A stretch of 64,000 bases of DNA from Candidatus Levyibacteriota bacterium (lineage in GTDB: Bacteria; Patescibacteriota; Microgenomatia; Levybacterales; UBA12049), in the NCBI GenBank assembly GCA_016214555.1, contig JACROF010000004.1, positions 276-64,275 on the forward strand, written 5' to 3'. Positions 36,509-61,742 of the stretch are shown here, piece by piece (within the stretch, counting starts at the first letter, position 1; each line of letters begins with the position of its first letter). The position numbers were made by a program, and so were the translations under genes. The notes beneath the pieces were generated by a model. That model saw nothing but the letters and a program-made list of their open reading frames with translations, did not search any database and had not been told where the DNA came from.

Positions 36509-37543
36509 ATGAAGAGAAAATCTACACTTAAAAAAATAGTGTTTCTTACAAGATCATATTATCCAAATATAGGAGGAGTTGAAAAACATATTTATGAAGT
36601 TTGTAAAAATTTAGATGGAAAAAAATATGCAATTCTTATCATCACTGAATCATTAACAATAAAGAAAAAATCTGAAATTGAATTTTATCATCTTCCCCAT
36701 GTGCAAGTGGTGAGAATTCCCATTAAAAAGCGAAACTGGTTCTTAAAGTTTCATATATGGAAATGGATGTGGGATCATAGAAGTCTATTTCGCGATGCGG
36801 ATGTAATTCATTGTCATGATGTCTTTTTTTGGTATGTGCATCTTGCATGTCTATATCCATTGAAAAATGTGTATACAACTTTTCATGGATATGAAGGTTA
36901 TCCCATAAGCCTAAAGGCAGTTATATACAGAAAAGTATTTGAGTATATGTCAAACAGAACAATTTGTGTGGGTGACTTTATGAAAAAGTGGTATCATGCA
37001 AAGCCAACACTTGTAATATACGGTGGAGTAAATGAGAAAAAAATTGTAAAGAAATTTAAGAAAAATTCAGCAGTTTTTATTGGAAGATTAGATGAGCATA
37101 CAGGAATTCTTGAGTACGCTCATGCAGTAAATATTATAAGGAAAAAAATTCCTAAATTTACTTTAACAATATATGGGGAGGGAAAATATAAAAACAAACT
37201 TGAGGGTGATGGAATCATTGTAAAAGACTCTAATATTTTTGCTGATGACATAATTTCTCAGTATGAATACGCATTTGTGTCTCGTTACCTTTCAATTTTA
37301 GAGTCACTTGCCTCTCAGAGGAGCGTATATGCAATTTATGATAACCCTCTTAAAAAAGACTACTTAGCTCTTTCTGTTTTTTCAAAGCATATTTCCATAG
37401 TTAAAAATCCAGAAGAAATTGCTTATAAGATTCTTCATGATGATAAAAGCCAGAAAAAAAGTTTGAGCGGTTATCTTTTATCAAAAAAATTAACTTGGAA
37501 AAAGGTTGCGAAAGATTATGAAAATCTTTGGGGATTTAATTAG
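36509..37543 (+). CDS. GT-B glycosyltransferase (GT4-like)
   Basis: FLTRSYYPNIGGVEKHIYEV N-terminal motif. Confidence 0.55.
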   Translation: MKRKSTLKKIVFLTRSYYPNIGGVEKHIYEVCKNLDGKKYAILIITESLTIKKKSEIEFYHLPHVQVVRIPIKKRNWFLKFHIWKWMWDHRSLFRDADVIHCHDVFFWYVHLACLYPLKNVYTTFHGYEGYPISLKAVIYRKVFEYMSNRTICVGDFMKKWYHAKPTLVIYGGVNEKKIVKKFKKNSAVFIGRLDEHTGILEYAHAVNIIRKKIPKFTLTIYGEGKYKNKLEGDGIIVKDSNIFADDIISQYEYAFVSRYLSILESLASQRSVYAIYDNPLKKDYLALSVFSKHISIVKNPEEIAYKILHDDKSQKKSLSGYLLSKKLTWKKVAKDYENLWGFN

Positions 37544-37584
37544 TAATTGCGATTGGCATTGGTATACCATACAATTGCATGTAA

Positions 37585-38310
37585 ATGATTAAGAATGCAG
37601 CGATTATTATCCCCACCTATAATGCAAAACAGCATATTAAAAAAACAATTGATGATATTTTTTCAATCTCACCTTTTCTAAATATTTTTGTTGTTGACGA
37701 TAATTCACCTGACAATACATCGTCTGAAGTAAAACTGTTAATTAAAAAATATAAGAGATTACAACTAATCAACAGGAGCAAAAAAGATGGCAGAGGATCT
37801 GCAGTTCTTGAAGGATTTAGACAAGCAAAAAATAACAAAGATATACTCTATTTTATAGAAATGGATGCAGACCTCTGTCATAATCCAGAATACATTCCAC
37901 AAATGATTAAAAAATGCGAGAAGTCAGATGTTGTTATCGCATCAAGGTACCTTCCAAGTTCTCGAATTATCGGATGGACGATAAAAAGAAAAATCATGAG
38001 CTTCTCAATGAATTTGTTTGCGAGAATTTGTCTTGGAATTCCAATCACTGATTATACTGATGGGTTTAGGTGCTATTCGCGAAGGGCTGTAGAGTTAATT
38101 CTTTCAAGGAAGATTTCGTCAAAGGGTTATGTTGTGCTTTCAGAAATTGCTTATGTTTGCTACAGAAACAACATGAAATTTTCTGAAATACCTATTGATT
38201 TTTATTTTGATTCAACGTTAAAATCAAATCTTGATATAGGTGTTATCAAAGAAGCGGTTAAGACTTTAATCCTATTAAGAATATATGGCAAAAAAAAGTA
38301 TAAAAAATAA
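37585..38310 (+). CDS. GT2 polyprenyl-phosphate sugar synthase (Dpm1/ArnC/GtrB-like)
   Basis: IIIPTYNA, VVDDNSPDNT and MDADLCHNPEYIP motifs. Confidence 0.8.
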   Translation: MIKNAAIIIPTYNAKQHIKKTIDDIFSISPFLNIFVVDDNSPDNTSSEVKLLIKKYKRLQLINRSKKDGRGSAVLEGFRQAKNNKDILYFIEMDADLCHNPEYIPQMIKKCEKSDVVIASRYLPSSRIIGWTIKRKIMSFSMNLFARICLGIPITDYTDGFRCYSRRAVELILSRKISSKGYVVLSEIAYVCYRNNMKFSEIPIDFYFDSTLKSNLDIGVIKEAVKTLILLRIYGKKKYKK

Positions 38311-39106
38311 AATAAATTCAAGAAAAAAAATAGAGGGCTATTTTAGAAGGTATTTGCGCATTGGTCCTTTAGGGTTGGCACTATGGAGATCTGTTGAGGC
38401 AAAGCATCTTGGCAATACTGTTTTAAAAAGACCAATACTTGATATCGGATGTGGTTTTGGTGAGTTTGCAATCGCATATAATGAGTTTATTGAAATGGGT
38501 ATTGATAATTGTAGTAAAGATTTATACATTGCTTCAAAAACAAATCTGTATAAAAATTTAACACTTGCTGATGCGCGAGATTTGCCTTTTTCAGATAATT
38601 CATATGCATCTATTTTTTCCATAAGCACACTAGAGCATATTGAAAATCCAGATAAAGTTTTGCGAGAAGCATATAGAGTGCTAAAGCCAGGAGGACTCCT
38701 TTTTCTCACATTAGAAACTGATGAAGTTGACGATGCAACATTTTACAGACCACTATTTCAGAGAATAGGACTGAAATCGCTTAGAGATCTTACAACAGAT
38801 ATGTATAATGATATCTTTCATCGTCACACGTTATTGCCAAAGGAGGACTGGAGGAATAAAGTTGAAAAGGCAGGTTTTATCATAAAAGAATCAAGAGATA
38901 TTATTTCTCCCAAAGTAAATAAAATGTTTGACATATTACTTATTTTCGCTTGGCCTTCACAGCTTTTTAGACCAATTGTAGGGAAAAGAGTTGTATTTCG
39001 ACCAAAATTTGTAGAAGATTTTTTGGTTTCCAAATTCTTAAAATATGTTACCGAAGATGAAAAAGAAGGTACCAATCTTCTTATACTTGCAAAAAAGCCT
39101 TTATAG
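38285..39106 (+). CDS. Class I SAM-dependent methyltransferase
   Basis: ILDIGCGFGEF motif I and VLKPGGLLFL. Confidence 0.75.
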   Translation: MAKKSIKNKINSRKKIEGYFRRYLRIGPLGLALWRSVEAKHLGNTVLKRPILDIGCGFGEFAIAYNEFIEMGIDNCSKDLYIASKTNLYKNLTLADARDLPFSDNSYASIFSISTLEHIENPDKVLREAYRVLKPGGLLFLTLETDEVDDATFYRPLFQRIGLKSLRDLTTDMYNDIFHRHTLLPKEDWRNKVEKAGFIIKESRDIISPKVNKMFDILLIFAWPSQLFRPIVGKRVVFRPKFVEDFLVSKFLKYVTEDEKEGTNLLILAKKPL

Positions 39107-40580
39107 CATTTTTGTACTAAATAAGTACAAATATAATATACGACTACTATTTTGGGCTGGAATTATAACCACTATCCTATTGACTTCAATAGCGTTTGAT
39201 TTATCACCATTACTACGCGGACCTGCACCATATTACCCTGATTGGAGATGGACGTATCATCCATCTTTTGCACTTGGCAAACTGTGGGCGCCGTCGTTAG
39301 TATTTGTAACAATTCTGTGGCTTTATACGTATTATGAAAAAAAAATAGCAGAGGAAAGAGTTGTATCTATACCTAAGTTACTAGCTGTATTTGTTGGACT
39401 ATCATTTTTATTTCAAATCTCAATACTTTTTTATAATCAAGCTGGAATAAGTGTTTTATTGCATAGAATTATCAACCAGGATATAAGCGGATATTTTACA
39501 TCTTCTCTTACGATATCATCATTTTCAGCTTTTATTTCACATTATAACGAAAATGTTGGACTATACCCGATGTTTGCAAGGTTTCATCCGCCAGCTTCTA
39601 TAATTTTGCTTTGGATCCCAACAGTTGTTTTTTCACATTTCCAATCATATCTGACTGTTTTTTCAAAAATAACTCCTACTCATACGGATGTAGCATTTGT
39701 GTGGACTCATCTTGAAAATTATCAAAGAGCATCCGCTGTTTTCTCAGCTTTATTTATTCCACTATTATCAAGCATGGCAATAGTACCTTTATATTTCTTA
39801 ACATCAATGCTCTATGGATCACTAATTGCTATTAGAGCTCTCCCGCTATATATGGTTATTCCGTCGATGGTGTCTTTTAATCCTCTCAATGACGGAATGT
39901 TTTCATTTTTATCAATTACTCTCATATATGTATTTTTTCTAGCCATCAAGCGGAAGAGCGTAGCATTTTTTATTTTGACTGGATTTTTTTACGCGATATG
40001 TATCTATTTTACATTAACTTTTATTCCATTTATTCTTTTTTTTGTAACTTATCTTGTTATTTATTTCTCCAAAAGAAAAAATTTCTACTTAAATACCATT
40101 AATTCATTTTTTGCTCTATCTTTTGGAGCTCTTATAATACCTTTTTTGTTATTTGTTCTTTATCAGTTTGACACGATTCAAATGGTGCAGGCCGTCATGA
40201 AATATCATGAGATCGCAAGAAATGGAAGAGAGTATTTAGTATGGTTTTTTTATAATATATACGATACGCTTCTGTTTTTTGGAATTCCTCTTTCTTGTAT
40301 TTTCATATGGTCACTTTTTGATTTTTTTAAAAAAAGGAGAAGCCTTATAAAAAATAACATACTTGTATCGTTTTTATTTATGATTTGTTTTGTAAATTTT
40401 AGCGGTGCTACAAGGGGAGAAACAGCAAGAGTATGGATTCCTTATTTGCCTTTAATGTTTCTTGTTATAATCCATTTTATAGATATAAAAAGGTTTACAA
40501 AAAATCAAATATTATTCCTTATCGTTCTACAAGGGATTCAAGTTTTTATTTTTCAGTCCGTTTTAGTTACCCTATCATGA
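39045..40580 (+). CDS. Polytopic membrane protein, GT-C-like
   Basis: Hydropathy only. The start is uncertain because the ATG at 39045 overlaps the upstream gene by 62 nt. Confidence 0.35.
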   Translation: MLPKMKKKVPIFLYLQKSLYSIFVLNKYKYNIRLLFWAGIITTILLTSIAFDLSPLLRGPAPYYPDWRWTYHPSFALGKLWAPSLVFVTILWLYTYYEKKIAEERVVSIPKLLAVFVGLSFLFQISILFYNQAGISVLLHRIINQDISGYFTSSLTISSFSAFISHYNENVGLYPMFARFHPPASIILLWIPTVVFSHFQSYLTVFSKITPTHTDVAFVWTHLENYQRASAVFSALFIPLLSSMAIVPLYFLTSMLYGSLIAIRALPLYMVIPSMVSFNPLNDGMFSFLSITLIYVFFLAIKRKSVAFFILTGFFYAICIYFTLTFIPFILFFVTYLVIYFSKRKNFYLNTINSFFALSFGALIIPFLLFVLYQFDTIQMVQAVMKYHEIARNGREYLVWFFYNIYDTLLFFGIPLSCIFIWSLFDFFKKRRSLIKNNILVSFLFMICFVNFSGATRGETARVWIPYLPLMFLVIIHFIDIKRFTKNQILFLIVLQGIQVFIFQSVLVTLS

Positions 40581-42332
40581 TCATTGCTTTCTTTTTGGGT
40601 TGTACAGCAAGATCTTTCCGTAATAAAAAAATAAAAATAACAGTATGCTAAAAAATGTTGCAAAGCTGATTTGTTTAATTATTTTGTAAAGAGGGACATC
40701 ATTGTATGTCACTTCAATATAATTGATTCCACTATGTATGGAAAAATTTATCAGAGAATTATTTTCATAAGAAATTTTTGTTTCTTTTCCATTTACTTTT
40801 ACAATCCACCCTGGAAAGTACATCGTATTCTCTCTAAGCGATAGTTCTTTATCTGAGTATGTAATATAAGTATGCATTGTTGATGTCCTACTGATTTCCT
40901 TTAGTATTCCTTTGCCAGAAACAATTTCAAGAGGCTTTCTTGGTGGTGTTAAAAACCATGGATTGTCTTTATCAGCCCATCTCGAGTTTGCATAGTAATG
41001 ACCTTCTCCGCGTGCCGTGCTTTCTGGGAGAGATTTTATTAGATCAGCATCAGTGATAGATGGAAGAACTCTTCTCTGTCCCCAGTTTAGAACTGTTGAC
41101 AAAATAGCTATCGCTAACAGTAGGTATATAATAGGCTTTTTTTTGTATGCAAGAGTAAAGTATCCAGCAAGAACAGAGCAGGTAAATGCTGTGAGTAGGA
41201 GTAGTCTGTGATTTCCTACGTTTCTAACAAACGGAATTTGATACCAAATAAAATCAGAGTAGTTAGTTATTAAATAAATCAAGACAAATGTTGAAAAGAG
41301 CCAAAATAGTATACTTTTATTGTATTTTATTGATAATTTGTGTCTTAATAGCAAATAGCACAAAATCCCCAAAATAATTACGTGAGGGTACCCGATAAGA
41401 TTTGAGATTTCACCATATGGACCTTGAAATAGCAGACCTAGTCTCCATGGGGAATAGAGGAGTTCTTTAAGTGACAAGGATAAAACATGATTTTCAATTG
41501 CTTTTTCATATATTGTAAATTTTGAAAGAAAAAAGGGTGGCAACCATAAGTATATTGACGATAATGCACCAAGGAGATATGAAAGTAATAGTTTTAGATA
41601 AAGGTTGCTCTTCAAAATCTTTTTTTTATATACGATAACAACAAACATTGTTGACAGCATTGTTACAAAAAAAGCTATGACGACATGACTCATAATAAGA
41701 AGGCTAAGTAGTAGTCCAGAGGTAAGAATATGAATTTTTCTCCCTTCAACCATTTTTTGTAAAAAGATAAAATAAAGTGGTAAAAGAGTAAAAAGAAGTA
41801 TTTCGCCAATTACAATTTTAAAATGAATATCGATAAGATGGTAGGGTGCAAACAAGTAAAAAACTGAAGAAGAAAATGCTGCAAGATCGTTTTTAAGAAT
41901 TTTTTTTGAGAATAAATACATAAAGATCCCAGAAAGGATTATGTTTGCTGCTAAAAACAATTTCATACTAAATATGTATGAAAATCCGAGAAAATGAATA
42001 AAACTTAAGAGATAGTAAGGTAGTGTGTAGTTGAAGATAAAAAGAGGGTAACCGTAATTTGCATTTAGATTAGAAGACCATGAAGGCATAAATATGCCTT
42101 CGCTTAATGAGTCAAAAAACGAGATTGTTCTATAAAGATGGATTGTGAAATCACCACTTTCGTAAATTCCTTTTCTAAACACGCTCAGCGAGAGTATGAG
42201 CCCAAGAATAACAATGATCGTGAGAAAGCTTACATTTTTTTTAGGATATATAAATCGATAAAAAAGAAATCCTAGAGTACAAAAGGAGAGTGCTAGAACG
42301 TTGATAACAATCATTTTATAAGGATCAAGCAT
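40581..42332 (-). CDS. Polytopic membrane protein, GT-C-like, with a C-terminal extracytoplasmic domain
   Basis: About 13 TM helices and then a soluble domain of about 140 aa. Confidence 0.4.
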   Translation of the reverse strand: MLDPYKMIVINVLALSFCTLGFLFYRFIYPKKNVSFLTIIVILGLILSLSVFRKGIYESGDFTIHLYRTISFFDSLSEGIFMPSWSSNLNANYGYPLFIFNYTLPYYLLSFIHFLGFSYIFSMKLFLAANIILSGIFMYLFSKKILKNDLAAFSSSVFYLFAPYHLIDIHFKIVIGEILLFTLLPLYFIFLQKMVEGRKIHILTSGLLLSLLIMSHVVIAFFVTMLSTMFVVIVYKKKILKSNLYLKLLLSYLLGALSSIYLWLPPFFLSKFTIYEKAIENHVLSLSLKELLYSPWRLGLLFQGPYGEISNLIGYPHVIILGILCYLLLRHKLSIKYNKSILFWLFSTFVLIYLITNYSDFIWYQIPFVRNVGNHRLLLLTAFTCSVLAGYFTLAYKKKPIIYLLLAIAILSTVLNWGQRRVLPSITDADLIKSLPESTARGEGHYYANSRWADKDNPWFLTPPRKPLEIVSGKGILKEISRTSTMHTYITYSDKELSLRENTMYFPGWIVKVNGKETKISYENNSLINFSIHSGINYIEVTYNDVPLYKIIKQISFATFFSILLFLFFYYGKILLYNPKRKQ

Positions 42333-43619: not shown

Positions 43620-43710
43620 ATAGATCTAAACAATTATAAACGAATAATTGTTATAATTGCAATATAAATCATTAGAGGAATATATAACAATTTTTTATCA
43701 TAATTTAGAC

Positions 43711-46278: not shown

Positions 46279-46923
46279 TTACTTATTTGCAATAAACATG
46301 TGGTTTAGGCCCCATTGAGTAATAAAATATTTTTTTCTTATGTTCTTAAACCCTCCCTTTTTTAACAAAGTAGTAATTTCCTTATCAGTTAAGTAATAGC
46401 TTTCGTCGTGATGCATACCTCTTTCCCCATCAACATCAAATGAGGTATGAAAATATTTGTCGTAGAAATGCACTAGCTTATGTACTGCGATTTCAGCGAT
46501 AGGATTTCCCATGGTGATAATTATTTTTCCTTTATTTGATAAGCAGCGATAAGATTCTTTAATTTCAAGTAATCTTTCCTTTTTGGGAATATGATTTATT
46601 GTTGCAATAAATGTTACTGTGCTAAACTCTCCCGAAGAGAATGGGAAAACTGTTAGTGATTGAAATACTTGCTCCTTACTTAATCCTTTATAGTGAAAAA
46701 CGTCGATACCCTTTCCATTTCCCCTCCTAAATTTTTTGATAAAAAGATTGTCATTCCCGCAGCCTACATCAAGGCATCTTCCAACAACTTCTTTCGATAC
46801 ATAAAAATATCTTTCAGACCGTAAAGAGCAAAAAATAAAAAAGTCTTTATCAAACAGAGTTAATGCTCTAATAGGAAAAAATAAAAAATCTAAGATGGAA
46901 TGAAAAAATGATCGTTTAGGCAT
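46279..46923 (-). CDS. Class I SAM-dependent methyltransferase
   Basis: CLDVGCGNDN motif I. Confidence 0.6.
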   Translation of the reverse strand: MPKRSFFHSILDFLFFPIRALTLFDKDFFIFCSLRSERYFYVSKEVVGRCLDVGCGNDNLFIKKFRRGNGKGIDVFHYKGLSKEQVFQSLTVFPFSSGEFSTVTFIATINHIPKKERLLEIKESYRCLSNKGKIIITMGNPIAEIAVHKLVHFYDKYFHTSFDVDGERGMHHDESYYLTDKEITTLLKKGGFKNIRKKYFITQWGLNHMFIANK

Positions 46924-51777: not shown

Positions 51778-51797
51778 TAAATTCATGCTCAGAAAAT

Positions 51798-55227: not shown

Positions 55228-55987
55228 TGCTATTGTTCTTGTTAAGAATCAATCACACCAGTTAGAAAAATGTCTTAATTCTCTTTTATGGTGTGATGAA
55301 ATTATTGTCATTGATGATAATTCAGTTGATGATTCTATCGAAGTTGCAAAAGTTCAAGGTGCAAGAATCTTTACAAGAAGTTTGAATAACAATTTTTCAT
55401 CCCAAAGACAATTTGGACTCTCAAAGGCAAAGAATGAGTGGGTTTTGTATGTTGATGCTGATGAGATAGTTACACCAGAGTTAGCAAACGAAATTTATCA
55501 GCAAATCACACAATTTTTGAGTCCGGTAAACGGTTATTTCATAAAAAGAAAAGATGTTTTATGGGGGAAAACAATTAAATTTGGAGATGCTGGAAGAACA
55601 AAACTCTTAAGATTAGCTAGAAAAAATAAAGCAACCTGGTCAGGAGATGTGCATGAAAAATGGACTGTTCTTGGTGAAACAGGAACATTTAAAAGTACTT
55701 TAATTCATTATCCGCATCAGTCAGTAAGAGAGTTTTTAAGTGAAATTGACTATTATTCAACAATCAGAGCAAAAGAGTTAAAAAATAAAAATGTAAAATC
55801 TGATATTATTCGTTGTCTTTTTTATCCATTAGGAAAGTTTTTATATCTTTATTTTTATAAGTTGGGATTCTTAGATGGCGTTGCTGGTATTATCTCAGCA
55901 ATTATGATGAGCTTTTATACATTTTTGGTTGCTGGAAAACTCTGGATGCTATATCAAGAAAAGAAAACGTATGATTTTGGATATTGA
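55220..55987 (+). CDS. GT2 glycosyltransferase
   Basis: AIVLVKNQ...VIDDNSVDDS...VDADEIV. Confidence 0.75.
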   Translation: MISAIVLVKNQSHQLEKCLNSLLWCDEIIVIDDNSVDDSIEVAKVQGARIFTRSLNNNFSSQRQFGLSKAKNEWVLYVDADEIVTPELANEIYQQITQFLSPVNGYFIKRKDVLWGKTIKFGDAGRTKLLRLARKNKATWSGDVHEKWTVLGETGTFKSTLIHYPHQSVREFLSEIDYYSTIRAKELKNKNVKSDIIRCLFYPLGKFLYLYFYKLGFLDGVAGIISAIMMSFYTFLVAGKLWMLYQEKKTYDFGY

Positions 55988-56094: not shown

Positions 56095-57858
56095 ATGTTT
56101 AAGAATATAAAGCAACGTTTACTTATCACCTATTTTCTTGTTTGTGCATTTTTTCTGCTTACTTCATTGTTTATAACAAATCCACTTATCTTTCACTTAT
56201 CAACAAAAGCAACAGGTGTAGGTGATGAGCTTTTGTTATCATGGATTCAGACTTGGGTGTCTCATATCGTTTTTTCTGACCCACTAAAATTATTTGATGC
56301 ACCGTCTTTTTTTCCTTTTCATAACTCCCTTGCATACTCCGATTCTTTAATATCCTCAAGTATTATATTTTATCCATTTTATGTAATTTTTCACCAACCA
56401 ATTGTTTTTCAAAATGCTACACTCATTACATCACTATGGCTTTTAGGTTTTTCATCATACTTACTTTGCTTCTATCTCTTTAGAAGGCATATTCCAGCTA
56501 TTATTTCAGGTCTCATGGTTGTTTTCTCACCAGTTGTTCTTGATAAGTATGTTCATCTTCAAGTGCTTTTTGTTTTTTTTGTGCCACTAGCCTTTTTGTC
56601 GTTTATGCACTATTTAAAATCTCAAAAGAAAACCTATCTTATTTTAGCAATGTTATGTTTTATATTGCAGACTCTTAATAGCTTTCTTCCAGGCTACTTT
56701 ATTATATTTGGGTTCGTTGGGATTCTCTTAGCATTTGCTATCTTCGAAAAAAAGAAATTAGATAAAAAATACTTTATAAAAATATTTTTTGCACTAGTAA
56801 TAAGTATTGCAATCTTGATTCCATTTATTCTGCCATACTATAAAGTTTCATCAGACTTTGCCTATACGCGAGACATAAGGGATTCTATTCATTTTGCCTT
56901 ACAGCCTGAAGATTTGTATTATGCAAATTCATTTACCAGACTTTCACCAATGCTTGAATTTATTAATGTTAAAAGTAATTTTTCACAAAATCCGTCTTTT
57001 AAAAACGGTTATCCTGGATTGCTATTACTTATTGGATCAATATTGTCGATTTTCTATATAGTTAAAAATTGGAAAAAAGAAAGGTATGAAGTGAAGTCAT
57101 TATTTATCATTGGGATAGGTGGATTGATCCTGAGCCTAGGGCCTTTTCTTCATATTGGTAGACAAACAATTCATCACCCATTTCCTGTGCCACTCCCTTA
57201 TTTGCTACTTTATTACTTAGTTCCAGGATTTAATGGGTTAAGAAATTCAGCAAGATGGGAGGTCCTCTTTGTTTTGTGCATGTCGATTTTAGCTGGGTAT
57301 TATATTGGAATTTTTTTTTCAAAATATAAAGGCGTTCATAAACACATACTAGCTATTCTTTTTGTCTCAATAATTTTTGTTGAGTATAAACCGTCATTTC
57401 ATCTGGTAGATATTTTACCAAGGGAGAAATTCCCACAGGAGTATCATTGGCTCAGCAAGCAATCTCAAAATGCTGTAGTTGTTGAAATGCCAGTCTACAA
57501 CTGGAACACATTCCCTTACGCTACAAGAGAACTTCAGAGACAATATTATTCAACAGCACATTTTCTCAGAACTGTTAATGGAGCGAGTGGTTTTTCTCCG
57601 CCTCCATGGCAATTGTTATCAGTCAAGCTCTTAAAAGAATTTCCATCTAGTAAATCGATTGACACATTGAAAAATCTTGGAGTAAATTTTATTATCGTGC
57701 ACTTTGATGAATATGATTTGTTGCATCATGATAATTATAAAGTAGAAGGACTTATCAAAGCTCCCTCATCTGCAGAGATTAAGAAAATTATTTCAACAAA
57801 TGCCACATTAAGAGAAGTTGTAAAATTTGATAACACAGTAATATATGTAATTAAGTAA
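56095..57858 (+). CDS. Polytopic membrane protein, GT-C-like
   Basis: GVGDELLLSWIQTW (DE motif) in the first loop. Confidence 0.4.
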   Translation: MFKNIKQRLLITYFLVCAFFLLTSLFITNPLIFHLSTKATGVGDELLLSWIQTWVSHIVFSDPLKLFDAPSFFPFHNSLAYSDSLISSSIIFYPFYVIFHQPIVFQNATLITSLWLLGFSSYLLCFYLFRRHIPAIISGLMVVFSPVVLDKYVHLQVLFVFFVPLAFLSFMHYLKSQKKTYLILAMLCFILQTLNSFLPGYFIIFGFVGILLAFAIFEKKKLDKKYFIKIFFALVISIAILIPFILPYYKVSSDFAYTRDIRDSIHFALQPEDLYYANSFTRLSPMLEFINVKSNFSQNPSFKNGYPGLLLLIGSILSIFYIVKNWKKERYEVKSLFIIGIGGLILSLGPFLHIGRQTIHHPFPVPLPYLLLYYLVPGFNGLRNSARWEVLFVLCMSILAGYYIGIFFSKYKGVHKHILAILFVSIIFVEYKPSFHLVDILPREKFPQEYHWLSKQSQNAVVVEMPVYNWNTFPYATRELQRQYYSTAHFLRTVNGASGFSPPPWQLLSVKLLKEFPSSKSIDTLKNLGVNFIIVHFDEYDLLHHDNYKVEGLIKAPSSAEIKKIISTNATLREVVKFDNTVIYVIK

Positions 57859-57860
57859 AT

Positions 57861-59453
57861 ATGTTCGGAATTGCTTTTCTATTGGGATTATTTGGTAACG
57901 TTATTTTTGCTTTTGGTATTCTTCAAGAATATGAATTTTTGAGCTTACTTGCGATTACTTGTATATTTGGTTTTCTTAGTATTATTTTTTGGGATAAATT
58001 TGAAAAAAAAATATCGATAAAAAATATCGCAAAAAATATTAAGGAGATATTATTTGAATATCCATATATTTTTTGCTTTATCATAGCAAGCTTAGGTCTT
58101 ATGTTGGTGGGTGCTCTTGGACCAGAACTCGCCTTTGACTCGCTATGGTATCATCTGACGATCCCAAAAATTTATTTAGAAAACGGAGGAATATCATATA
58201 TTCCAGGGGGTCTTTTGTATTATTCAACGATGCCAAAACTTGGTGAAATGTTGTACATACCGGCATTAGCATTAAGTGGCGAAGTTTTGGTGAAAATAGT
58301 CCATATGACTTTTGCATTGCTAACTGCAATTGCAACATATCAGCTTAGTAGAAAATTCGCCTCAGTATTTTATTCATTAATTTCAGTAGTAATTCTTTTT
58401 ACGAACATTGTTTTTTTGTGGGAAGGTACAACTGCATATATTGATTTGATTAGAACGTTTTTTGAAGTAATGGCTCTCTTCGGATTGATCGAATATTTTA
58501 ATACAAAAAAAAGTAAATGGTTAATCGAATCAGCATTCCTTATGGGGCTTTCAATAGAGACAAAGCTTATATCGTTAGCAACATTTTTAGTACTCATTAT
58601 CTTAATTGCAGTTTTTGATAGGAGAGGCATAAATACCTTCAAAAAAATTATTATGTACGGTGTAATTTCTTTGTTTGTTCCTTTAGGGTGGTTTGTGTTT
58701 TCCTTTTTAAGTACAAGTAATCCCTTTTACCCTCTTTTTTCTGTGTATAATATTCATTTTGAAAAAGATGTTTTGGTATTCCCTTCGATCTTTTTTGATA
58801 TTTTTACTATTTTTATTTCGTCATCAGATCCAATCTCGCCCTTTTACCTTATAATCGCGCCAATTTATTTTATGATAAGAAATAAGATTCCATCTAAGAC
58901 AAATGTTATTTTCTTATTTTGTATATTGGCACTTTTGGTTTGGACTATTACACCCAAAACTGGAGGAGGAAGATTTTTGCTTCCATATCTCCCTGCATTT
59001 TCGATAGCATCAGCAGTTATTCTTGAGACAATTAAAAAATATAAAAATTATTATCGAGTATTAATCATTGTTCTCATATTCGTTTGTGTTGTAGCCTTGT
59101 TGTATAGGGGATTAGCTGTCAGCAAATATATGCCAGCTATTTTTGGTAAGGAATCAAAAGAATCATTTCTTATGAGTCATCTCAATTTCAAATTTGGTGA
59201 CTTTTATGATGAGGATCATAGTATTAAAAAAATTGTCGGAGATAAAAATGTCTTGCTATATGGATTTCATAATTTGTATTATGTGGATTTTCCATTTATT
59301 GATTCATCATGGGTAAAAAAAGGTGACACATTTGAATTTATTGCGACCCAAAATACGTCGTTGCCAAAAAGATTTCAGTACTGGAATGTAATTTACTCAA
59401 ATGACACAACCGGTGTTAAGCTTTATACTACAAACACAAGATGGATATATTAA
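57861..59453 (+). CDS. Polytopic membrane protein, GT-C (PMT/ArnT-like)
   Basis: Hydropathy, with AFDSLWYHLTIPK in the first loop. Confidence 0.4.
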   Translation: MFGIAFLLGLFGNVIFAFGILQEYEFLSLLAITCIFGFLSIIFWDKFEKKISIKNIAKNIKEILFEYPYIFCFIIASLGLMLVGALGPELAFDSLWYHLTIPKIYLENGGISYIPGGLLYYSTMPKLGEMLYIPALALSGEVLVKIVHMTFALLTAIATYQLSRKFASVFYSLISVVILFTNIVFLWEGTTAYIDLIRTFFEVMALFGLIEYFNTKKSKWLIESAFLMGLSIETKLISLATFLVLIILIAVFDRRGINTFKKIIMYGVISLFVPLGWFVFSFLSTSNPFYPLFSVYNIHFEKDVLVFPSIFFDIFTIFISSSDPISPFYLIIAPIYFMIRNKIPSKTNVIFLFCILALLVWTITPKTGGGRFLLPYLPAFSIASAVILETIKKYKNYYRVLIIVLIFVCVVALLYRGLAVSKYMPAIFGKESKESFLMSHLNFKFGDFYDEDHSIKKIVGDKNVLLYGFHNLYYVDFPFIDSSWVKKGDTFEFIATQNTSLPKRFQYWNVIYSNDTTGVKLYTTNTRWIY

Positions 59454-60556
59454 AAAAAGCTATTTCAATAACTATTTTTCTTGTTTTACTTATTTGGCTT
59501 TGTAAAGCGTTAACACTTGGGAATTATCCTGATTTTAATGTATTTTATGGAGGGCTAAAGGCTTATCTTGCAGGAGGTAATCCTTATAAAGATGTGATTG
59601 GATCGTCAATGAAATTTTTGTATCCACCTATTGCATTATTCTTTTTTCTTCCCGTGGCATTTTTTGAAAGAGCTGAGGCGAGTATTATTTGGACTGTACT
59701 TTCAATTATTCTCTTTATCACAAGCATAGTTTTTCTTTTTAAAACTGAAAAAAGAAAAATCTTTTCGAATGAATTTTTTATTCTTTCTAGCTTTTCTTTT
59801 CTTATGTTTCCATTGAAGTTCAACTTGGGAATGGGACAATTTAATAATGTAAATCTTTTCTTACTTTCACTATTTTTGCTTTTAACGTCGAGGGGAAGAT
59901 TTGCTCTTTCTGGAACAGCAGTTGGTCTTTCATTGATCCTTAAAGTATTTCCAGTGCTACTTCTTCCGTACTTGCTTATCATCAAGCAATTTAAGGCATT
60001 TCAATTATCAGTTTTAGTGGTTATAGCAGGGGTAGCAATTGGCTTTGTGGTGGTTAGGCAAGAGTTGACAGAATATTTTTTTGGCTCTTCGCTACTTGGA
60101 ACACTACGAAGCTGGCCTCTTGATTATTATAATCAAGCTCTTTCAGGACTCTTGGGTCGATGGCTTGGTGTTTCGTTTACTACTCTATGTATAAAGTATT
60201 TTCTAACGTTTTTGTTAATCGGTGCGTCATTTTTTATTTACTGGAAGAAACGATCTGTAAAATCAATACATCTTCTTGCTGCGTCGAGCATTTTCCCTTT
60301 ATCGCTCATAACACTAACATTTTCGTGGCAACACTATTTCGTGTTAACTATGCCAGCCTATCTTCTTTTATACTTTCGTTTTAGGAAAAAGAAGAGATCA
60401 ACTAAAAAATATTTTTTGTTATTTACCTCATATGTTTTAGTTGCTTTAAATCTTGCACATCCTTCATCTTTTCCACTTATTTTTCAGTGGCATGTTTTTT
60501 ATGGAACACTGCTATTGTTAGCTCTGCAGCTTGAGGAGATCTACCATGCTAAGTAA
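59441..60556 (+). CDS. Polytopic membrane protein (DUF2029/GT87-like)
   Basis: KVFPVLLLPYLL-type motif and hydropathy. Confidence 0.3.
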   Translation: MDILKKAISITIFLVLLIWLCKALTLGNYPDFNVFYGGLKAYLAGGNPYKDVIGSSMKFLYPPIALFFFLPVAFFERAEASIIWTVLSIILFITSIVFLFKTEKRKIFSNEFFILSSFSFLMFPLKFNLGMGQFNNVNLFLLSLFLLLTSRGRFALSGTAVGLSLILKVFPVLLLPYLLIIKQFKAFQLSVLVVIAGVAIGFVVVRQELTEYFFGSSLLGTLRSWPLDYYNQALSGLLGRWLGVSFTTLCIKYFLTFLLIGASFFIYWKKRSVKSIHLLAASSIFPLSLITLTFSWQHYFVLTMPAYLLLYFRFRKKKRSTKKYFLLFTSYVLVALNLAHPSSFPLIFQWHVFYGTLLLLALQLEEIYHAK

Positions 60557-61742
60557 ATTTTTGATTTGTTTTTTAACACTAGCTTTTATATGCGGACAAG
60601 TTGTTCGTTTGCAAATAGGGGATATTGGGATAACATTTTTTGATATATCGATTACATTAATTGTTGTAGTATGGTTTTTGTATAAAGGAGGAAATAAAAA
60701 GTGGAACTCAATTTTTGGTAAAAATCTTTATAAGAAATTTTTAGTGTTTATCGCTGTTGGAGTGTTGTCGCTTAGTTTAGCATATGCTAAAAATAATCAG
60801 ATTGATATTGTTACTTCAATACTTTATCCTATACGACTTGTTTTGATATCGCTTTTATATTTTCCTCTTAGGTTACTCTCTCAAAAAAATAAGCAATTTT
60901 TAATTCTTGATATGATTTTTGGAGGGGTTTGTATACTTGTAATTGGTTTTGTCCAGTTTTTTTTCTATCCATATTTAGGAAATCTTTATCACTTAGGTTG
61001 GGATGACCATCTTTTTCGTTTGTTTTCGACTTTTCTGGACCCAAATTTTGCCGCTGCATTTTTTAGTATTTTCTTAGTATTTATCCTCGAATTATTTTTT
61101 AATCACAGAGGACGAGCAAGAATTCTTTTCAGCGCTCTTATGATAGCCACCTTTACTGCGATACTTCTTACGTATTCAAGAACAGGTATCTTGATGATGA
61201 TTATTTCCGTCTCAATATATTTATTGCTAACTCAATCAAAGAAGGTGGTGTTTGCGGGTATTGGAATTTGCATGCTTTTTTTTATTCTATCTGCAAACAC
61301 CAAGATTGAAGGGCTTAACCCTCTGAGAGTCGCTTCTACGACAGCAAGAATACAGTCTGCAGAGATTGCCACAAAGATATTTCTTTCAGAGCCATTACTC
61401 GGAGTTGGTTTTAATGCATATAGATATGCTCAGCAAGAGAGAGGGTATAGGAGTATTGCTCCAAGAGTACAAAGTCATGCAGATTCTGGAACAGACAATA
61501 GTTATCTTTTTATCTTAGCAACTACAGGAATCGTTGGCATGGGCACTGCACTATTTTTTCTTTATGGAATATACTTTGAACTGAGAAAGTCAGTCGCAAA
61601 AAATATGTTCTTATCAAAATCTTTTTTTGCTGCATTTCTTGCAGTACTTATTGGAAGCATATTTTTGAATGTAGGTTTCTATTCAATGATTTTATGCTTC
61701 TTGATAGCTTTTAGTTCACTTATTCAGCAAAAGAAACCTTAA
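60546..61742 (+). CDS. Wzy/O-antigen-ligase-like membrane protein
   Basis: LLTYSRTGILMM and a large outside loop with conserved R and H residues. The start could instead be 60531. Confidence 0.4.
   Translation: MLSKFLICFLTLAFICGQVVRLQIGDIGITFFDISITLIVVVWFLYKGGNKKWNSIFGKNLYKKFLVFIAVGVLSLSLAYAKNNQIDIVTSILYPIRLVLISLLYFPLRLLSQKNKQFLILDMIFGGVCILVIGFVQFFFYPYLGNLYHLGWDDHLFRLFSTFLDPNFAAAFFSIFLVFILELFFNHRGRARILFSALMIATFTAILLTYSRTGILMMIISVSIYLLLTQSKKVVFAGIGICMLFFILSANTKIEGLNPLRVASTTARIQSAEIATKIFLSEPLLGVGFNAYRYAQQERGYRSIAPRVQSHADSGTDNSYLFILATTGIVGMGTALFFLYGIYFELRKSVAKNMFLSKSFFAAFLAVLIGSIFLNVGFYSMILCFLIAFSSLIQQKKP

Follow-up and report, generated by a model that had tools for sequence, protein, structure and literature searches.

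A segment of about 25 kb (positions 36509–61742) within the window, the 64,000-nucleotide stretch of DNA analysed here, is a real, conserved gene cluster whose predicted role is to build the cell-surface sugar coat of uncultured Levybacteria (CPR/Patescibacteria). We consider it probable, at roughly three chances in four, that the segment is the main locus for assembling cell-envelope glycan, that its cassettes are exchangeable and that it acts on both membrane faces. The locus is noteworthy because it encodes seven membrane GT-C transferases, two of which are fused to an inside-facing GT2.

Content and conservation of the locus

Position 36509 is the start of a GT4 open reading frame (ORF) and position 61742 the stop of a Wzy_C ORF, and both bounds are exact. 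Between them lie 21 genes, almost all for glycan synthesis. They are listed below with a second block further upstream, a gene just past the right bound, Pfam scores (curated cut-offs: PMT_2, 26.1 bits; PTPS_related, 26.4 bits; Wzy_C, 31.7 bits) and transmembrane (TM) helices from a simple hydropathy count.

18311..19789, +, GT-C paralogue (492 aa; weak PMT_2, 18.8 bits)
19924..21849, +, acyltransferase-3 (641 aa, 12 TM; Acyl_transf_3 88.2 bits)
21872..23419, +, GT-C-like protein (515 aa, 9 TM; no Pfam match)
24658..26136, +, probable GT-C (492 aa, 10 TM)
36509..37543, +, GT4 glycosyltransferase GT4a (344 aa, soluble; Glyco_transf_4 60.5 bits)
37585..38310, +, GT2 of Dpm1/GtrB/AglJ type (241 aa; Glycos_transf_2 102 bits)
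38285..39106, +, SAM-dependent methyltransferase (273 aa; Methyltransf_11 69.8 bits)
39045..40580, +, GT-C-like membrane protein (511-aa ORF, 12 TM)
40581..42332, -, YfhO/PTPS_related-type GT-C (583 aa, 10 TM; PTPS_related 41.1 bits)
42390..43619, -, sugar C-methyltransferase (409 aa; Methyltransf_14 161 bits, Methyltransf_13 zinc-binding domain, Methyltransf_23)
43657..46278, +, GT2::GT-C fusion (873-aa ORF, 855 aa from the NCBI start, 13 TM)
46279..46923, -, methyltransferase (214 aa; Methyltransf_23 30.6 bits)
46923..47264, -, DUF2304 small membrane protein (113 aa, 3 TM; DUF2304 49.3 bits)
47266..47934, -, GacI/PpgS-type GT2 (222 aa; Glycos_transf_2 82.3 bits)
48009..49118, +, GT4 glycosyltransferase GT4b (369 aa; Glycos_transf_1 73.7 bits)
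49012..49548, +, cupin-fold protein (Cupin_2 30.9 bits; weak FdtA match)
49545..50792, +, sugar C-methyltransferase (415 aa; Methyltransf_14 182.8 bits, Methyltransf_13 74.6 bits)
50833..51777, +, GFO/IDH/MocA oxidoreductase (GFO_IDH_MocA 74.1 bits)
51798..53039, +, Wzx-type (MOP) flippase (413 aa, 8 TM; Polysacc_synt_3 235 bits, Polysacc_synt 121.8 bits)
53026..55227, +, GT2::GT-C fusion (733 aa, 9 TM; Glycos_transf_2 59.4 bits, PMT_2 33.6 bits, above cut-off)
55220..55987, +, GT2 (255 aa, one C-terminal TM; Glycos_transf_2 63.7 bits)
56095..57858, +, probable GT-C, variable cassette gene (587 aa, 9 TM)
57861..59453, +, conserved PMT_2-like GT-C (530 aa, 11 TM; PMT_2 20 bits, below cut-off)
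59441..60556, +, GT87-family GT-C, variable cassette gene (371 aa, 7 TM; GT87 99.4 bits)
60531..61742, +, Wzy_C-domain protein (403 aa, 11 TM; Wzy_C 59 bits)
61720..62424, -, single-pass membrane protein with two Ig-like domains (234 aa; Glucodextran_B 76 bits, Big_6)

The inventory of the 25 kb comprises seven GT-C-like genes (ten across the whole window), five GT2 domains, two of them in the fusions, two GT4 enzymes, four methyltransferases, a 3-dehydrogenase-like oxidoreductase, a cupin, Wzx and Wzy_C. Neither a GtrA-family flippase nor a Wzz/PCP gene was found at the locus. The flanking DNA holds a dcw cluster and housekeeping genes. The window matches an 81 kb metagenome contig exactly, and NCBI names the copies of its proteins Candidatus Levybacteria.

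The same gene set recurs in the same order in about 40 related genomes, which argues that the cluster is more than a chance grouping. From the left, the common order is GT4, YfhO-like, GT2 with or without GT-C, Wzx, GT4, GT2::GT-C and GT2, followed on the right by variable GT-Cs, a GT-C, Wzy_C, the Ig-fold anchor protein and ATP synthase. The right flank (Ig protein, pyrimidine genes, ATP synthase) is kept across relatives, and the cassettes for sugar precursors and GT-Cs differ from one genome to the next. Homologues of GT4a mark the left end in 19 related loci, those of GT4b immediately precede the 733-type gene in 38, and the 255-aa GT2 (49 loci) always comes directly after that gene. Wzx recurs in 39 loci, and the 530-aa GT-C immediately ahead of Wzy_C in 23. 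Wzy_C itself stands at the right end in 34, and the Ig-fold protein, which has a basic N-terminal tail and then one TM, follows right behind it on the minus strand in 37; this anchor protein is a core gene of the locus, just to the right of the 25 kb. The 273-, 409- and 415-aa methyltransferases have homologues in 23, 17 and 18 loci, respectively, and the 214-aa one has none among the related loci. The 583-aa GT-C is found at the equivalent position in ten related loci. Homologues of the 587-aa protein occur in seven loci, and those of the GT87 protein in three to four.

The region had been described in an earlier note as a glycosylation island. A conserved glycan cluster is indeed present, but the word "island" is misleading: with synteny in about 40 related genomes and no obvious import, a foreign origin was rejected, and gene content and order mark it as a chromosomal locus that Levybacteria/Microgenomates conserve in synteny and whose cassettes are swappable.

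GT-C membrane proteins and GT2::GT-C fusions

The earlier note had counted at least nine ArnT/PMT-like polytopic proteins. Nine polytopic proteins are present by hydropathy count; seven are GT-C candidates, and the others are Wzx and Wzy_C, which the note had named as separate items and which must be included to arrive at its figure. By sequence and structure comparison, the seven are GT-C-fold transferases, and profile searches, proposed earlier as a check, placed the large membrane ORFs in PMT_2, PTPS_related/YfhO and GT87, not in transporter families. Profile–profile comparison (hhalign) interlinked all nine membrane families at 91–100% probability, a score that composition may inflate in TM-rich families; the Wzx family, included as a control, matched none of the nine. 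In every GT-C-like family, the first outside loop contains an Asp that is invariant or nearly so. The DE motif previously reported there is literal in the 587-aa protein, the GT-C part of the 873-aa fusion (873C) and the 24658 protein of the second block; elsewhere it is a conserved Asp, or Asp/Glu in the 511-aa family.

Orthologues of the 530-aa protein in L082–L084 carry PMT_2 and/or PMT in precomputed annotation. Its NCBIfam match is weak, to the LA_3751/LA_3752 putative glycosyltransferase family, its family is linked by hhalign to 873C and to the GT-C part of the 733-aa fusion (733C) at 96–97%, and D93 is invariant in 24/24 sequences. The GT87 protein matches NCBIfam mannosyltransferase PRK13375 (1.5e-16, below cut-off) and has an invariant D31, while the 583-aa protein adds a C-terminal YfhO match (23.2 bits in Pfam) and an invariant D61. 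The 511-aa protein itself has no Pfam match; PMT_2 was detected in 7 of 15 family members (best 1.6e-9), and hhalign links to the 733C, 873C and 530 families reach 91–96%. Its true start probably lies about 45 codons downstream, because the NCBI call is 466 aa. PDB-sequence profile searches with the 511-aa and 733C families recovered no GT-C. In Pfam the 587-aa protein matches DUF7657 alone, weakly; hhalign connects it to the YfhO-like 583 family (94.9%, 256 columns), 873C (94.6%) and 733C (91%), and its invariant D44 is part of the DE motif.

The second block noted earlier, three GT-C-like genes plus an acyltransferase-3 at 18.3–26.1 kb, was borne out. The 18311 protein has direct phmmer matches to 733-type GT-C domains (2e-8) and shares with the 733 family an invariant first-loop "DQ". 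The closest local homologue of the 21872 protein (L046:1089-2537) scores 40.1 bits against PMT_2, and the 21872 family matches 733C at 97.6% (hhalign). The 24658 protein and four homologues have no Pfam match; its family aligns with 873C (95%) and the 530 family (92%), and it carries DE at residues 35–36, with the Asp conserved. Homologues of this protein lie within the main locus of L010, L013 and L083, and one of the acyltransferase-3, a candidate glycan O-acyltransferase, within that of L007. Profile–profile scores, topology and the conserved Asp suggest that the 587-aa and 24658 proteins are probably GT-C.

Two of the GT-C genes encode GT2::GT-C fusions, which the earlier note had missed. 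In the 733-aa protein, a cytoplasmic GT-A domain (about 1–240) is followed by two helices and an ArnT-like GT-C domain (about 274–733). The full-length AF2 model reached pLDDT 94.0 and pTM 0.90, and the GT-C domain modelled alone pLDDT 94.3. The top 39 Foldseek matches of this domain in the PDB were all GT-C enzymes, with ArnT best (5f15; TM-score 0.63/0.55) and STT3/PglB/AglB, ALG12/9, AftB/A, PMT and Emb further matches; the GT-A part structurally matched ppGalNAc-T, WrtF, RmlT, TarP and GlfT2. Invariant or near-invariant residues include D43, N44, N91-P92-D93, E205, E206 and D208 in the GT-A part and D303, W306 and H333, among others, in the GT-C part. Among the best 120 of 929 homologues, 119 are 713–771 aa long and one 1092 aa, and the majority have both domains.

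The 873-aa protein has the same succession of GT-A domain, two TM helices and GT-C domain (Glycos_transf_2, 75.4 bits, residues 23–140; PMT_2, 25.0 bits, residues 446–578, just below cut-off), and D48 in the first loop of its GT-C part is invariant. Its homologues number at least 310, and the top 120 are all 836–883 aa with GT2 plus PMT_2 and/or PMT, and Glyco_transf_21 in some. In relatives this type occurs fused, split-adjacent (L012, L016, L020) or GT2-only (308–321 aa), and the 733 type is split-adjacent in L036, L038, L040 and L051. Of the 150 top-ranking representatives of 50%-identity clusters, 60 have the fusion's GT-C orthologue in fused form and 79 as a stand-alone protein. Judged by these homologues, both fusions are real and conserved members of large Patescibacteria families. 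Their GT-A domains can be aligned with one another across 204 columns (hhalign) and best match TarP, TarS, RmlT, WrtF, GlfT2 and ppGalNAc-T. The 873-type GT2 has a GtrB-like architecture (GT-A plus two TM helices), aligns with Dpm1-type enzymes in its N-terminal half only, and ranks generic GT2 enzymes above GtrB, ArnC and DPMS.

Stand-alone GT2 and accessory enzymes

Signatures of polyprenyl-phosphate-sugar synthases had been claimed for three GT2 enzymes. Two carry them, the 241-aa enzyme as DADLCH (residue 94) and the 222-aa enzyme as DGDGQHD (residue 86); the third, of 255 aa, has VDADE. The 241-aa GT2 is a candidate polyprenyl-phosphate-sugar synthase: its best NCBIfam matches are AglJ, PgfS, PpgS and ArnC (all below cut-offs), and its hhalign alignment with the 222-aa family spans the whole protein (E 1.5e-23, 199 columns). 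The latter enzyme (PpgS 5.9e-37 and AglJ 4.3e-32, both below cut-off) is a candidate HexNAc-P-polyprenol synthase. The family consensus of the 255-aa GT2 presumably resembles WaaE/KdtX-type GT2 enzymes, and the protein is possibly WaaE/KdtX-like.

The DUF2304 gene lies immediately downstream of the 222-aa GT2. GacJ is likewise a 113-aa, 3-TM DUF2304 protein that stimulates GacI, as Rv3632 stimulates PpgS (bioRxiv 10.1101/180810), and by analogy the protein at this locus may be a GacJ/WpsB/Rv3632-like activator. DUF2304 genes are absent from all related loci examined; among these, only the window has the GacI/GacJ-like pair.

The earlier reports of two GT4 enzymes and a Wzx flippase were upheld, and the "three or more" methyltransferases number four, two of them Methyltransf_13/14 C-methyltransferases. 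The Wzy/ligase-like protein also stands and may be a polymerase or a ligase/O-oligosaccharyltransferase, since the Wzy_C domain fits either. The cupin-fold protein is possibly a sugar keto-isomerase or epimerase, and its true start is probably later than called (its L002 homologue has 131 aa). The oxidoreductase matches NCBIfam UDP-GlcNAc 3-dehydrogenase at 9.1e-42, below cut-off.

Proposed pathway and known parallels

The earlier reading as a surface glycan or glycosylation system is supported, with Dpm1/GtrB/GacI-type GT2s, GT4s, methyltransferases, Wzx and Wzy_C all present. We infer donors, acceptors, step order, priming and end product as follows. Nucleotide sugars, some C-methylated or oxidised by enzymes of the locus, would feed the GT4s and the WbbL/TarP-like GT-A domains (733 N-terminus, 873 N-terminus, 255-aa GT2), and these would assemble, at the cytoplasmic face, an oligosaccharide carried by polyprenyl phosphate. 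Wzx would then flip the lipid-linked glycan. Outside, Wzy_C and the conserved GT-C modules (733C, 530-aa) would polymerise it and/or transfer it to the final acceptor. Side-branch sugars may be added by the strain-variable GT-Cs (GT87, 587, 511, 583, 873C and the three of the second block) from monosaccharide-P-polyprenols made by the 241-aa Dpm1/GtrB-type GT2 and the GacI/GacJ-like pair, and acyl groups by the acyltransferase-3.

No PF00953 or PF02397 gene was found in the 25 kb or in four Pfam-annotated relatives, nor any MraY/WecA homologue in about 54 loci. With no phosphoglycosyl transferase at the locus, priming would be encoded elsewhere or would use a monophosphate carrier, as the lactococcal PSP pathway does. 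The GacI/GacJ-like pair was ruled out as a general primer because, among related loci, DUF2304 is confined to this window.

Precedents exist in the lactococcal PSP pathway and the GacIJKL system (PMC10821137; bioRxiv 10.1101/180810) and in Gram-positive GT-A/flippase/GT-C systems (PMC8035078). Of the known parallels, the closest are the multi-component transmembrane glycosylation systems of Gram-positive bacteria and this same PSP pathway. In the Levybacteria locus, the GT2::GT-C fusions would physically tie a cytoplasmic step to an extracytoplasmic step of one pathway.

Gene content of the locus and its surroundings

The window is bacterial chromosomal DNA of Candidatus Levybacteria (Patescibacteria/CPR, Microgenomates). 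The region from 36509 to 61742 contains 21 genes, and its two limits, taken from the earlier note, coincide exactly with ORF boundaries. Outside the glycan loci, the remainder of the window consists of housekeeping genes.

Genes of the main locus in order (window positions in brackets), followed by the housekeeping segments

1 of 21: GT4 (36509)
2 of 21: GT2, 241 aa
3 of 21: SAM methyltransferase
4 of 21: 511-aa protein, 12 TM (39045-40580)
5 of 21: 583-aa protein, PTPS_related/YfhO, minus strand (40581)
6 of 21: C-methyltransferase, minus strand (42390-43619)
7 of 21: 873-aa protein, GT2 + PMT_2, plus strand (43657-46278)
8 of 21: methyltransferase, minus strand
9 of 21: DUF2304, minus strand (46923-47264)
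10 of 21: GT2, 222 aa, minus strand (47266-47934)
11 of 21: GT4 (48009)
12 of 21: cupin (49012-49548)
13 of 21: second C-methyltransferase, plus strand (49545-50792)
14 of 21: GFO/IDH/MocA oxidoreductase
15 of 21: Wzx
16 of 21: 733-aa protein, GT2 + PMT_2, plus strand (53026-55227)
17 of 21: GT2, 255 aa
18 of 21: 587-aa protein, 9 TM (56095)
19 of 21: 530-aa protein, PMT_2-like (57861)
20 of 21: GT87 (59441)
21 of 21: Wzy_C
0.6-15.5 kb: dcw cluster (Mur ligases, MurA, GlmS, MraY, FtsW, MurG, FtsA, FtsZ)
26.8-35.8 kb: IleRS, RodA, L21, ParB, signal peptidase
Beyond 62.4 kb: tRNA-Thr, phosphoribosyltransferase, ATP synthase epsilon

Within these 25 kb there are indeed nine large polytopic proteins, the minimum proposed in the earlier note. 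Candidates for GT-C enzymes number only seven, because two of the nine are the Wzx and Wzy_C proteins that had been listed separately. The two GT4 enzymes, at least three methyltransferases, Wzx flippase and Wzy/ligase-like protein described before all appear in the gene list, the Wzx/Wzy pair with Pfam matches of 235 bits (Polysacc_synt_3) and 59 bits (Wzy_C). The second block was likewise recovered, with three GT-C-like genes (18311, 21872 and 24658) and an acyltransferase-3 gene (19924; 88 bits). It also holds a 358-aa ORF with 6 TM helices (17196-18272, minus strand) and a 380-aa ORF encoding a soluble protein (23504-24646, plus strand). Neither has a Pfam match or a homologue in the related loci, and the second has no PDB match.

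The starts of the ORFs at 39045-40580, 43657-46278 and 49012-49548 are probably too early. NCBI calls are shorter for the first (466 aa vs 511) and for the second (855 aa vs 873, the longer ORF being read from a TTG), while the 178-aa cupin ORF compares with a homologue of 131 aa. With later starts, the apparent overlaps with the upstream genes vanish. In the dcw cluster, the GlmS ORF (6415-9225, plus strand) is 936 aa long. Its residues 1-566 align with residues 1-590 of the 608 in E. coli GlmS, and the approximately 370 extra residues comprise a hydrophobic, multi-TM-like part and then a soluble tail. An intein was considered and rejected for this extension, which starts with the hydrophobic part and has no recognisable intein junction. 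The ORF is either a genuine fusion of GlmS to a membrane domain or two genes merged by a lost stop codon.

GT-C enzymes and their fusion to GT-A domains

Above the curated Pfam cut-offs, PMT_2 was matched by the 733-aa protein, GT87 by the protein at 59441 and PTPS_related by the protein at 40581. The 873-aa, 530-aa and 18311 proteins matched PMT_2 just below the cut-off, and the other four of the ten candidates (39045, 56095, 21872 and 24658) had no significant Pfam match of their own. Among relatives, seven of the 15 proteins of the 511-aa family match PMT_2 (best 1.6e-9), as does the nearest local homologue of 21872 (40 bits). Profile searches placed none of the membrane ORFs in unrelated families such as transporters. 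No GT-C of the window carries a MIR domain or an STT3-type domain in Pfam. The PMT (PF02366) plus MIR architecture of GT39 is absent from the window proteins, which match PMT_2 only; PF02366 is matched by some relatives of the 873-aa protein.

For profile-to-profile comparison, strict family alignments were built from approximately 80 fetched loci, which prevented profile drift towards the abundant fusion family. Nine families (18311, 21872, 24658, 39045, 40581, 56095, 57861 and the GT-C domains of the 733-aa and 873-aa proteins, hereafter 733C and 873C) were interlinked at 91-100% probability (hhalign). The Wzx family, used as a control for membrane composition, matched none of the nine at ≥50%. 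An Asp in the first loop after TM1, a hallmark of GT-C enzymes, is kept in every candidate family. The DE motif that had been reported for the first outside loop of several proteins is present literally in the 587-aa protein, 873C and 24658. The 587-aa (56095) and 24658 proteins, which are linked to GT-C families at 91-95% (hhalign), are probable GT-C enzymes on profile-profile scores, topology and the conserved Asp.

The fold of 733C was modelled with 118 homologues (pLDDT 94.3, pTM 0.93). Hydropathy indicates 9 TM helices, and the AF2 model has approximately 13 helices across residues 274-652. No fewer than 90% of 118 full-length homologues have D303, as do all 41 domain sequences, and a conserved motif, GDQxWFY, follows it. 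In a Foldseek search against the PDB, ranks 1-39 were all GT-C enzymes, and the first transporter appeared at rank 45 with a probability of 0.06. The best match was ArnT (5f15; E 3.4e-6, TM-score 0.63 by query and 0.55 by target), and the other GT-C matches were STT3, PglB, AglB, ALG12, ALG9, AftB, AftA, PMT and EmbA/B/C. Profile searches of the 511-aa and 733C families against PDB sequences retrieved no GT-C enzyme (one was empty, the other gave a single chance match to CFAP69); the domains have diverged too far to be tied to solved structures by sequence. 733C resembles ArnT (GT83) and PMT (GT39) in its fold, N-in topology, small C-terminal alpha/beta domain, Asp opening the first outside loop and PMT_2 match above the cut-off. 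It differs from ArnT in sequence (approximately 11-12% identity in the structural alignment), and neither ArnT nor PMT has an N-terminal GT-A fusion such as that of the 733-aa protein.

The GT2 domains at the start of the 733-aa and 873-aa proteins had been overlooked in the earlier note. An 81,107-bp metagenome contig (Logan SRR12113407) encodes a residue-for-residue copy of the 733-aa protein, and the NCBI copy is titled 'MAG: glycosyltransferase [Candidatus Levybacteria bacterium]'. The protein has 929 homologues. Among the best 120, which share 40-46% identity with it, 119 are 713-771 aa long and one is 1092 aa, and most carry both GT2 and PMT_2 in precomputed annotation. At least 310 homologues were found for the 873-aa protein, the best 120 being 836-883 aa long with GT2 plus PMT_2 and/or PMT. 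Both halves of the 733-aa protein contain catalytic-type residues that are invariant or near-invariant in its family: the GT-A part has D43, N44, N91-P92-D93, E205, E206 and D208, and the GT-C part has D303, W306 and H333. As modelled over its full length (pLDDT 94.0, pTM 0.90), the protein opens with a GT-A domain, which two helices connect to TM1 of the GT-C domain. Since GT-C enzymes are usually N-in, the modelled GT-A domain would be cytoplasmic and the GT-C active-site loop would lie outside.

Both fusions also exist in natural split forms. An exhaustive search with 733C only, over 1.84 billion cluster representatives, gave 168 matches at E ≤ 1e-30; the best 150 comprise 60 fused proteins (at least 650 aa), 79 stand-alone proteins (400-649 aa) and 11 fragments. 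Among the genome loci fetched for comparison, the 733-type occurs as a fusion in 28, as two adjacent GT2 and GT-C genes in four (L036, L038, L040 and L051) and as the GT-C only in eight. The 873-type is fused in five loci and the window, split into adjacent genes in three (L012, L016 and L020) and represented in 14 loci by a GT2 of 308-321 aa that has two TM helices. Full-length matches among the 80 best genome loci come exclusively from MAGs of Levybacteria, Microgenomates, Gottesmanbacteria and other Patescibacteria, and in other phyla only the GT2 part was matched. Many MAG records labelled 'uncultured Gammaproteobacteria bacterium' (TPA assemblies; L007, L010, L012, L013, L015, L016, L018, L022-L024 and others) bear the Levybacteria-type locus with full synteny, and these labels are evidently placeholders or errors. 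Three long relatives of 733C, P0099 (1092 aa), P0381 (878 aa) and P0398 (859 aa), in which the match starts between residue 267 and approximately residue 400, indicate further domain combinations in this GT-C family.

The GT2 enzymes fall into more than one subtype. Three had been described as polyprenyl-phosphate-sugar synthases by signature. Two bear such signatures, DADLCH at residue 94 of the 241-aa enzyme and DGDGQHD at residue 86 of the 222-aa enzyme, while the third small GT2, of 255 aa, has VDADE; its family consensus may resemble that of WaaE/KdtX-type enzymes. The 241-aa and 222-aa proteins align over their full length (E 1.5e-23, 199 columns; hhalign). In NCBIfam they score best against PpgS (5.9e-37 for the 222-aa protein), AglJ, PgfS and ArnC without reaching any equivalog cut-off, which makes them family members and not orthologues. 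By signature and similarity, both belong to the polyprenyl-phosphate-sugar synthase group. The 222-aa gene is directly followed by the DUF2304 gene (49.3 bits, 113 aa, 3 TM), which is the arrangement of GacI/GacJ, WpsA/WpsB and PpgS/Rv3632, where the synthase is activated by a small protein (bioRxiv 10.1101/180810; PMC10821137). This GacI/J-like pair was found in the window only and in none of the related loci.

The fused GT-A domains and the 255-aa GT2 are not of the Dpm1/GtrB/ArnC/GacI/PpgS type. Their best matches are TarP, TarS, RmlT, WrtF, GlfT2, chondroitin synthase, HpsN and EpsD; for the fused domains ppGalNAc-T is also among the best, and DPMS, GtrB and ArnC rank far lower. Against Dpm1-type families, the GT2 part of the 873-aa protein aligns over approximately 110 N-terminal columns and the 255-aa GT2 over 87-97 (hhalign). 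For the GT-A part of the 733-aa protein, the alignment to the 241-aa family spans 199 columns at a probability of only 83.8%, and that to the GT2 part of the 873-aa protein spans 204 columns (hhalign). A GtrB/Dpm1-type identity was tested for the 873-type GT2 because its stand-alone form is approximately 310 aa long with two TM helices. Sequence evidence did not support it, leaving an architectural hint, as the GT-A-plus-two-TM architecture is all that is shared with GtrB. Some 873-type relatives match Glyco_transf_21. Given this difference in GT-A subtype, the two proteins are not GtrB-GtrC fusions in the simple sense, and on their family matches they are best described as 'elongating'-type GT-A domains joined to GT-C domains.

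Conserved core and possible routes of glycan assembly

The same gene order is shared by approximately 40 genomes.

Gene order shared among the related genomes

1: GT4 (36509 type)
2: YfhO-like GT-C, minus strand
3: 873-type GT2, with or without the GT-C domain
4: Wzx
5: methyltransferases, optional
6: GT4 (48009 type)
7: 733-type GT2::GT-C
8: 255-aa GT2
9: variable GT-C genes (GT87, 587-aa type, 24658 type)
10: 530-aa GT-C
11: Wzy_C
12: 234-272-aa single-pass protein with two Ig-like domains, minus strand
13: pyrimidine genes
14: ATP synthase operon

The single-pass protein at position 12, here called the Ig protein, is a core gene; in 37 related loci it lies immediately after Wzy_C, encoded on the opposite strand. 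The protein has a basic N-terminal tail, one TM helix and two Ig-like Glucodextran_B/Big domains, and might act as co-polymerase, scaffold or acceptor.

Positions of the Ig protein gene in the window and in four Pfam-annotated relatives

Window: 61720-62424, minus strand
L082: 19413-20132
L083: 17379-18095
L084: 18350-19168
L085: 17596-18306

From this gene content, a pathway can be proposed. The cytoplasmic GT4 and GT-A enzymes would extend an oligosaccharide on a polyprenyl-phosphate carrier, and Wzx would flip the lipid-linked product. Outside, Wzy_C and the conserved GT-C modules, 733C and the 530-aa protein, may polymerise the glycan and/or transfer it to an acceptor. The variable GT-Cs would attach branches, drawing on sugar-P-polyprenols supplied by the Dpm1/GacI-type GT2s, and the methyltransferases and acyltransferase-3 may decorate the product.

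One alternative is a classical Wzx/Wzy pathway on undecaprenyl diphosphate, with a WbaP/PglC- or WecA-type primer encoded elsewhere in the genome. The GT-Cs would then be only post-polymerisation decorators, and the fusions mere membrane tethering. Wzx, Wzy_C, two GT4s and several GT2s make up the standard parts list, and the locus resembles O-antigen, capsule and S-layer-glycan loci in the clustering of such genes with sugar-modification genes and in being variable between conserved flanks. Unlinked primers exist in other bacteria. TarP, RmlT, WrtF and GlfT2, which the fused GT-As resemble, act on lipid-linked or polymer acceptors, and roughly half of the sequence clusters have the 733C orthologue with no GT2 domain attached. 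Against this stands the lack of an initiating phosphoglycosyl transferase: no PF02397 or PF00953 gene occurs in the main locus or in four Pfam-annotated relatives (L082-L085), the only PF00953 gene of the window being MraY in the dcw cluster, and no MraY/WecA homologue lies within ±10 kb of the locus in approximately 54 related loci. No Wzz/PCP chain-length regulator was matched in Pfam on any scanned window ORF, and the Ig-fold single-pass protein sits where a co-polymerase might be expected. Unlike in Wzx/Wzy loci, GT-C genes outnumber every other class. Furthermore, conservation of 733C and the 530-aa protein equals that of Wzx and Wzy_C, suggesting that they belong to the core and are not decorative. 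We would give the classical pathway clearly less than even odds.

General protein O-glycosylation is slightly less likely again, although several features are compatible with it. Here, an oligosaccharide would be built on a lipid and flipped by Wzx, and Wzy_C, as a PglL/WsaB-type enzyme, would transfer it en bloc to surface proteins, with pilins, S-layer proteins and other surface proteins as the proposed acceptors; the PMT_2-type GT-Cs would add single sugars to Ser/Thr or extend the protein-bound glycan. Several GT-C genes match PMT_2, with PMT (PF02366) in some relatives, and the 733C model is about equally close to STT3, PglB and AglB and to ArnT. Labelled 'O-antigen ligase' in Pfam, the Wzy_C domain is common to O-antigen ligases, PglL-type O-oligosaccharyltransferases and some polymerases. 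The lack of a Wzz/PCP regulator is also compatible with this reading, and the Ig protein, as the neighbour of Wzy_C, could be the acceptor or a partner. However, the GT-Cs have no MIR or STT3-type Pfam match, no target protein was identified and the Ig protein has no obvious Ser/Thr-rich tract. The number of glycosyltransferases and the presence of Wzy_C fit a polymer equally well.

For the proposed polyprenyl-phosphate route, the closest experimentally grounded parallels are the Gram-positive multi-component transmembrane glycosylation systems and the lactococcal PSP pathway. In the former, the sugar-P-undecaprenol produced by a GT2 at the inner face is carried across the membrane by a flippase, and a PMT_2- or YfhO-type GT-C then attaches its sugar to a wall polymer on the outside (PMC8035078). 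The comparison group includes CsbB/GtcA/YfhO, GtlA/GtlB, Csd and GacI/J/K/L, together with phage Gtr systems. Like the Gram-positive systems, the window has Dpm1/GtrB- and GacI-type GT2s, a GacJ-type DUF2304 protein and PMT_2-like and YfhO-like GT-Cs. The GacK (GAC) and WpsG (PSP) flippases are described as Wzx-type (PMC10821137), and the window flippase is of that type too. Unlike these systems, no GtrA-family flippase was found at the locus, there are seven GT-C genes instead of one per locus, and two of the GT-Cs are fused to GT-A domains that are not of the Dpm1/GtrB subtype.

The PSP pathway comprises WpsA/WpsB, WpsC-F, WpsG, WpsH/I and WpsJ (PMC10821137). WpsA/WpsB make GlcNAc-P-C55, and the unit is extended on the monophosphate lipid and flipped by the Wzx-type flippase; because the unit is built on C55-monophosphate, PSP has no phosphoglycosyl transferase of its own (PMC10821137). 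The role of its GT-Cs outside is a proposal, and the polymerase is given as WpsH or WpsI differently in the text and in the Figure 1 legend (PMC10821137). The Levybacteria loci share with PSP the absence of a phosphoglycosyl-transferase primer. They differ in that the GacI/J-like pair is restricted to the window, where a Wzy_C protein is present and neither rhamnan genes nor any other acceptor polymer can be recognised. By this analogy, the missing primer fits a monophosphate route and is no proof of it, because an unlinked primer is equally possible.

Taken furthest, the polyprenyl-phosphate reading holds that the principal surface glycan of Microgenomates is made with no phosphoglycosyl-transferase primer at all. 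A polyprenyl monophosphate would carry the growing repeat unit, Wzx would move it across the membrane and GT-Cs would polymerise or attach it. At the centre of this route would stand 'two-faced' GT-A::GT-C polypeptides, each catalysing one step on either membrane face, and the Ig protein would be a co-polymerase or acceptor scaffold of a new type. We put the chance of this full version at roughly one in five.

Descent and significance of the locus

Sugar-precursor genes differ among the genomes. The window set comprises two C-methyltransferases, a cupin and a UDP-GlcNAc-3-dehydrogenase-like enzyme, and no NDP-hexose 4,6-dehydratase was seen in the window. The C-methyltransferases match Methyltransf_13/14 and have homologues in 17-18 related loci. 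Their position with the cupin and the dehydrogenase-like oxidoreductase suggests that Levybacteria surface glycans may contain branched-chain (C-methyl) sugars. In L083, a related locus, a cassette at 3016-6672 encodes a GHMP kinase, SIS_2, an NTP-transferase, a HAD phosphatase and a transaldolase, and looks like a nucleotide-heptose pathway. This difference points to cassette exchange inside a conserved locus.

The word 'island', used in the earlier note, is therefore wrong, because the locus is vertically conserved with exchangeable cassettes, like an O-antigen or capsule locus. Acquisition of the region as a foreign glycosylation cassette could draw on its GC content (0.30-0.34 vs approximately 0.36-0.40 in the housekeeping parts of the window), the tRNA-Thr gene at its right edge and the differing gene content of relatives, but it is improbable. 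In the relatives examined, the locus occupies the same chromosomal site, next to the Ig protein gene, the pyrimidine genes and the ATP synthase operon. Core genes are merely 40-50% identical between genomes, as vertical descent predicts, and exchange is apparent only for individual cassettes (the GacI/J-like pair and the sugar-precursor genes). Low GC is expected in genes rich in membrane-protein codons and in surface-glycan loci generally, and is by itself no sign of import. A reading of the membrane ORFs as transporters or other unrelated proteins that cluster by coincidence, in spite of the four of ten candidates with no significant Pfam match and the PDB-sequence searches that retrieved no GT-C, can practically be set aside: Pfam matches are to GT-C and none to transporter families, PMT_2 is matched at the family level, the top Foldseek matches of the 733C model are exclusively GT-C, the catalytic-type Asp is kept in every family and synteny of the membrane genes with GT2, GT4 and Wzx genes extends over approximately 40 genomes.

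All the parts are of known kinds, and a GT-C-rich surface-glycan locus is what a specialist would expect after annotation. Three aspects are new as far as the literature was searched: two lineage-wide GT-A::GT-C fusion families with natural split forms; the density of GT-Cs, ten in 64 kb of a small genome; and a primer-free core of Wzx, Wzy_C, obligatory GT-Cs and an Ig-fold anchor protein. In this search, with its incomplete coverage, no description of GT-A::GT-C or GT2::PMT_2 fusions and nothing relevant on CPR or Levybacteria glycosylation was found.

Bacteria of the CPR/Patescibacteria have small genomes, and many probably live on the surface of host cells, which makes their own surface the site of recognition, attachment and phage attack. 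The only complete chromosome among the related loci, that of a Levyibacteriota MAG (CP066685.1), is 762,565 bp long, and in a genome of that size the locus of approximately 25 kb would amount to about 3%, spent on one glycan pathway. A conserved core combined with swappable cassettes is what one would expect of a major surface antigen that is diversifying. The GT-A::GT-C fusions form a natural 'Rosetta stone' that links specific cytoplasmic steps to specific extracytoplasmic ones. Being single polypeptides, they should lend themselves to expression and assay more readily than multi-protein systems, and they could serve glyco-engineering. The absence of a priming phosphoglycosyl transferase predicts monophosphate-linked intermediates, as in lactococcal PSP. 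If true, the primer-free, two-faced route would be a distinct, lineage-wide architecture for making envelope glycans in CPR bacteria.
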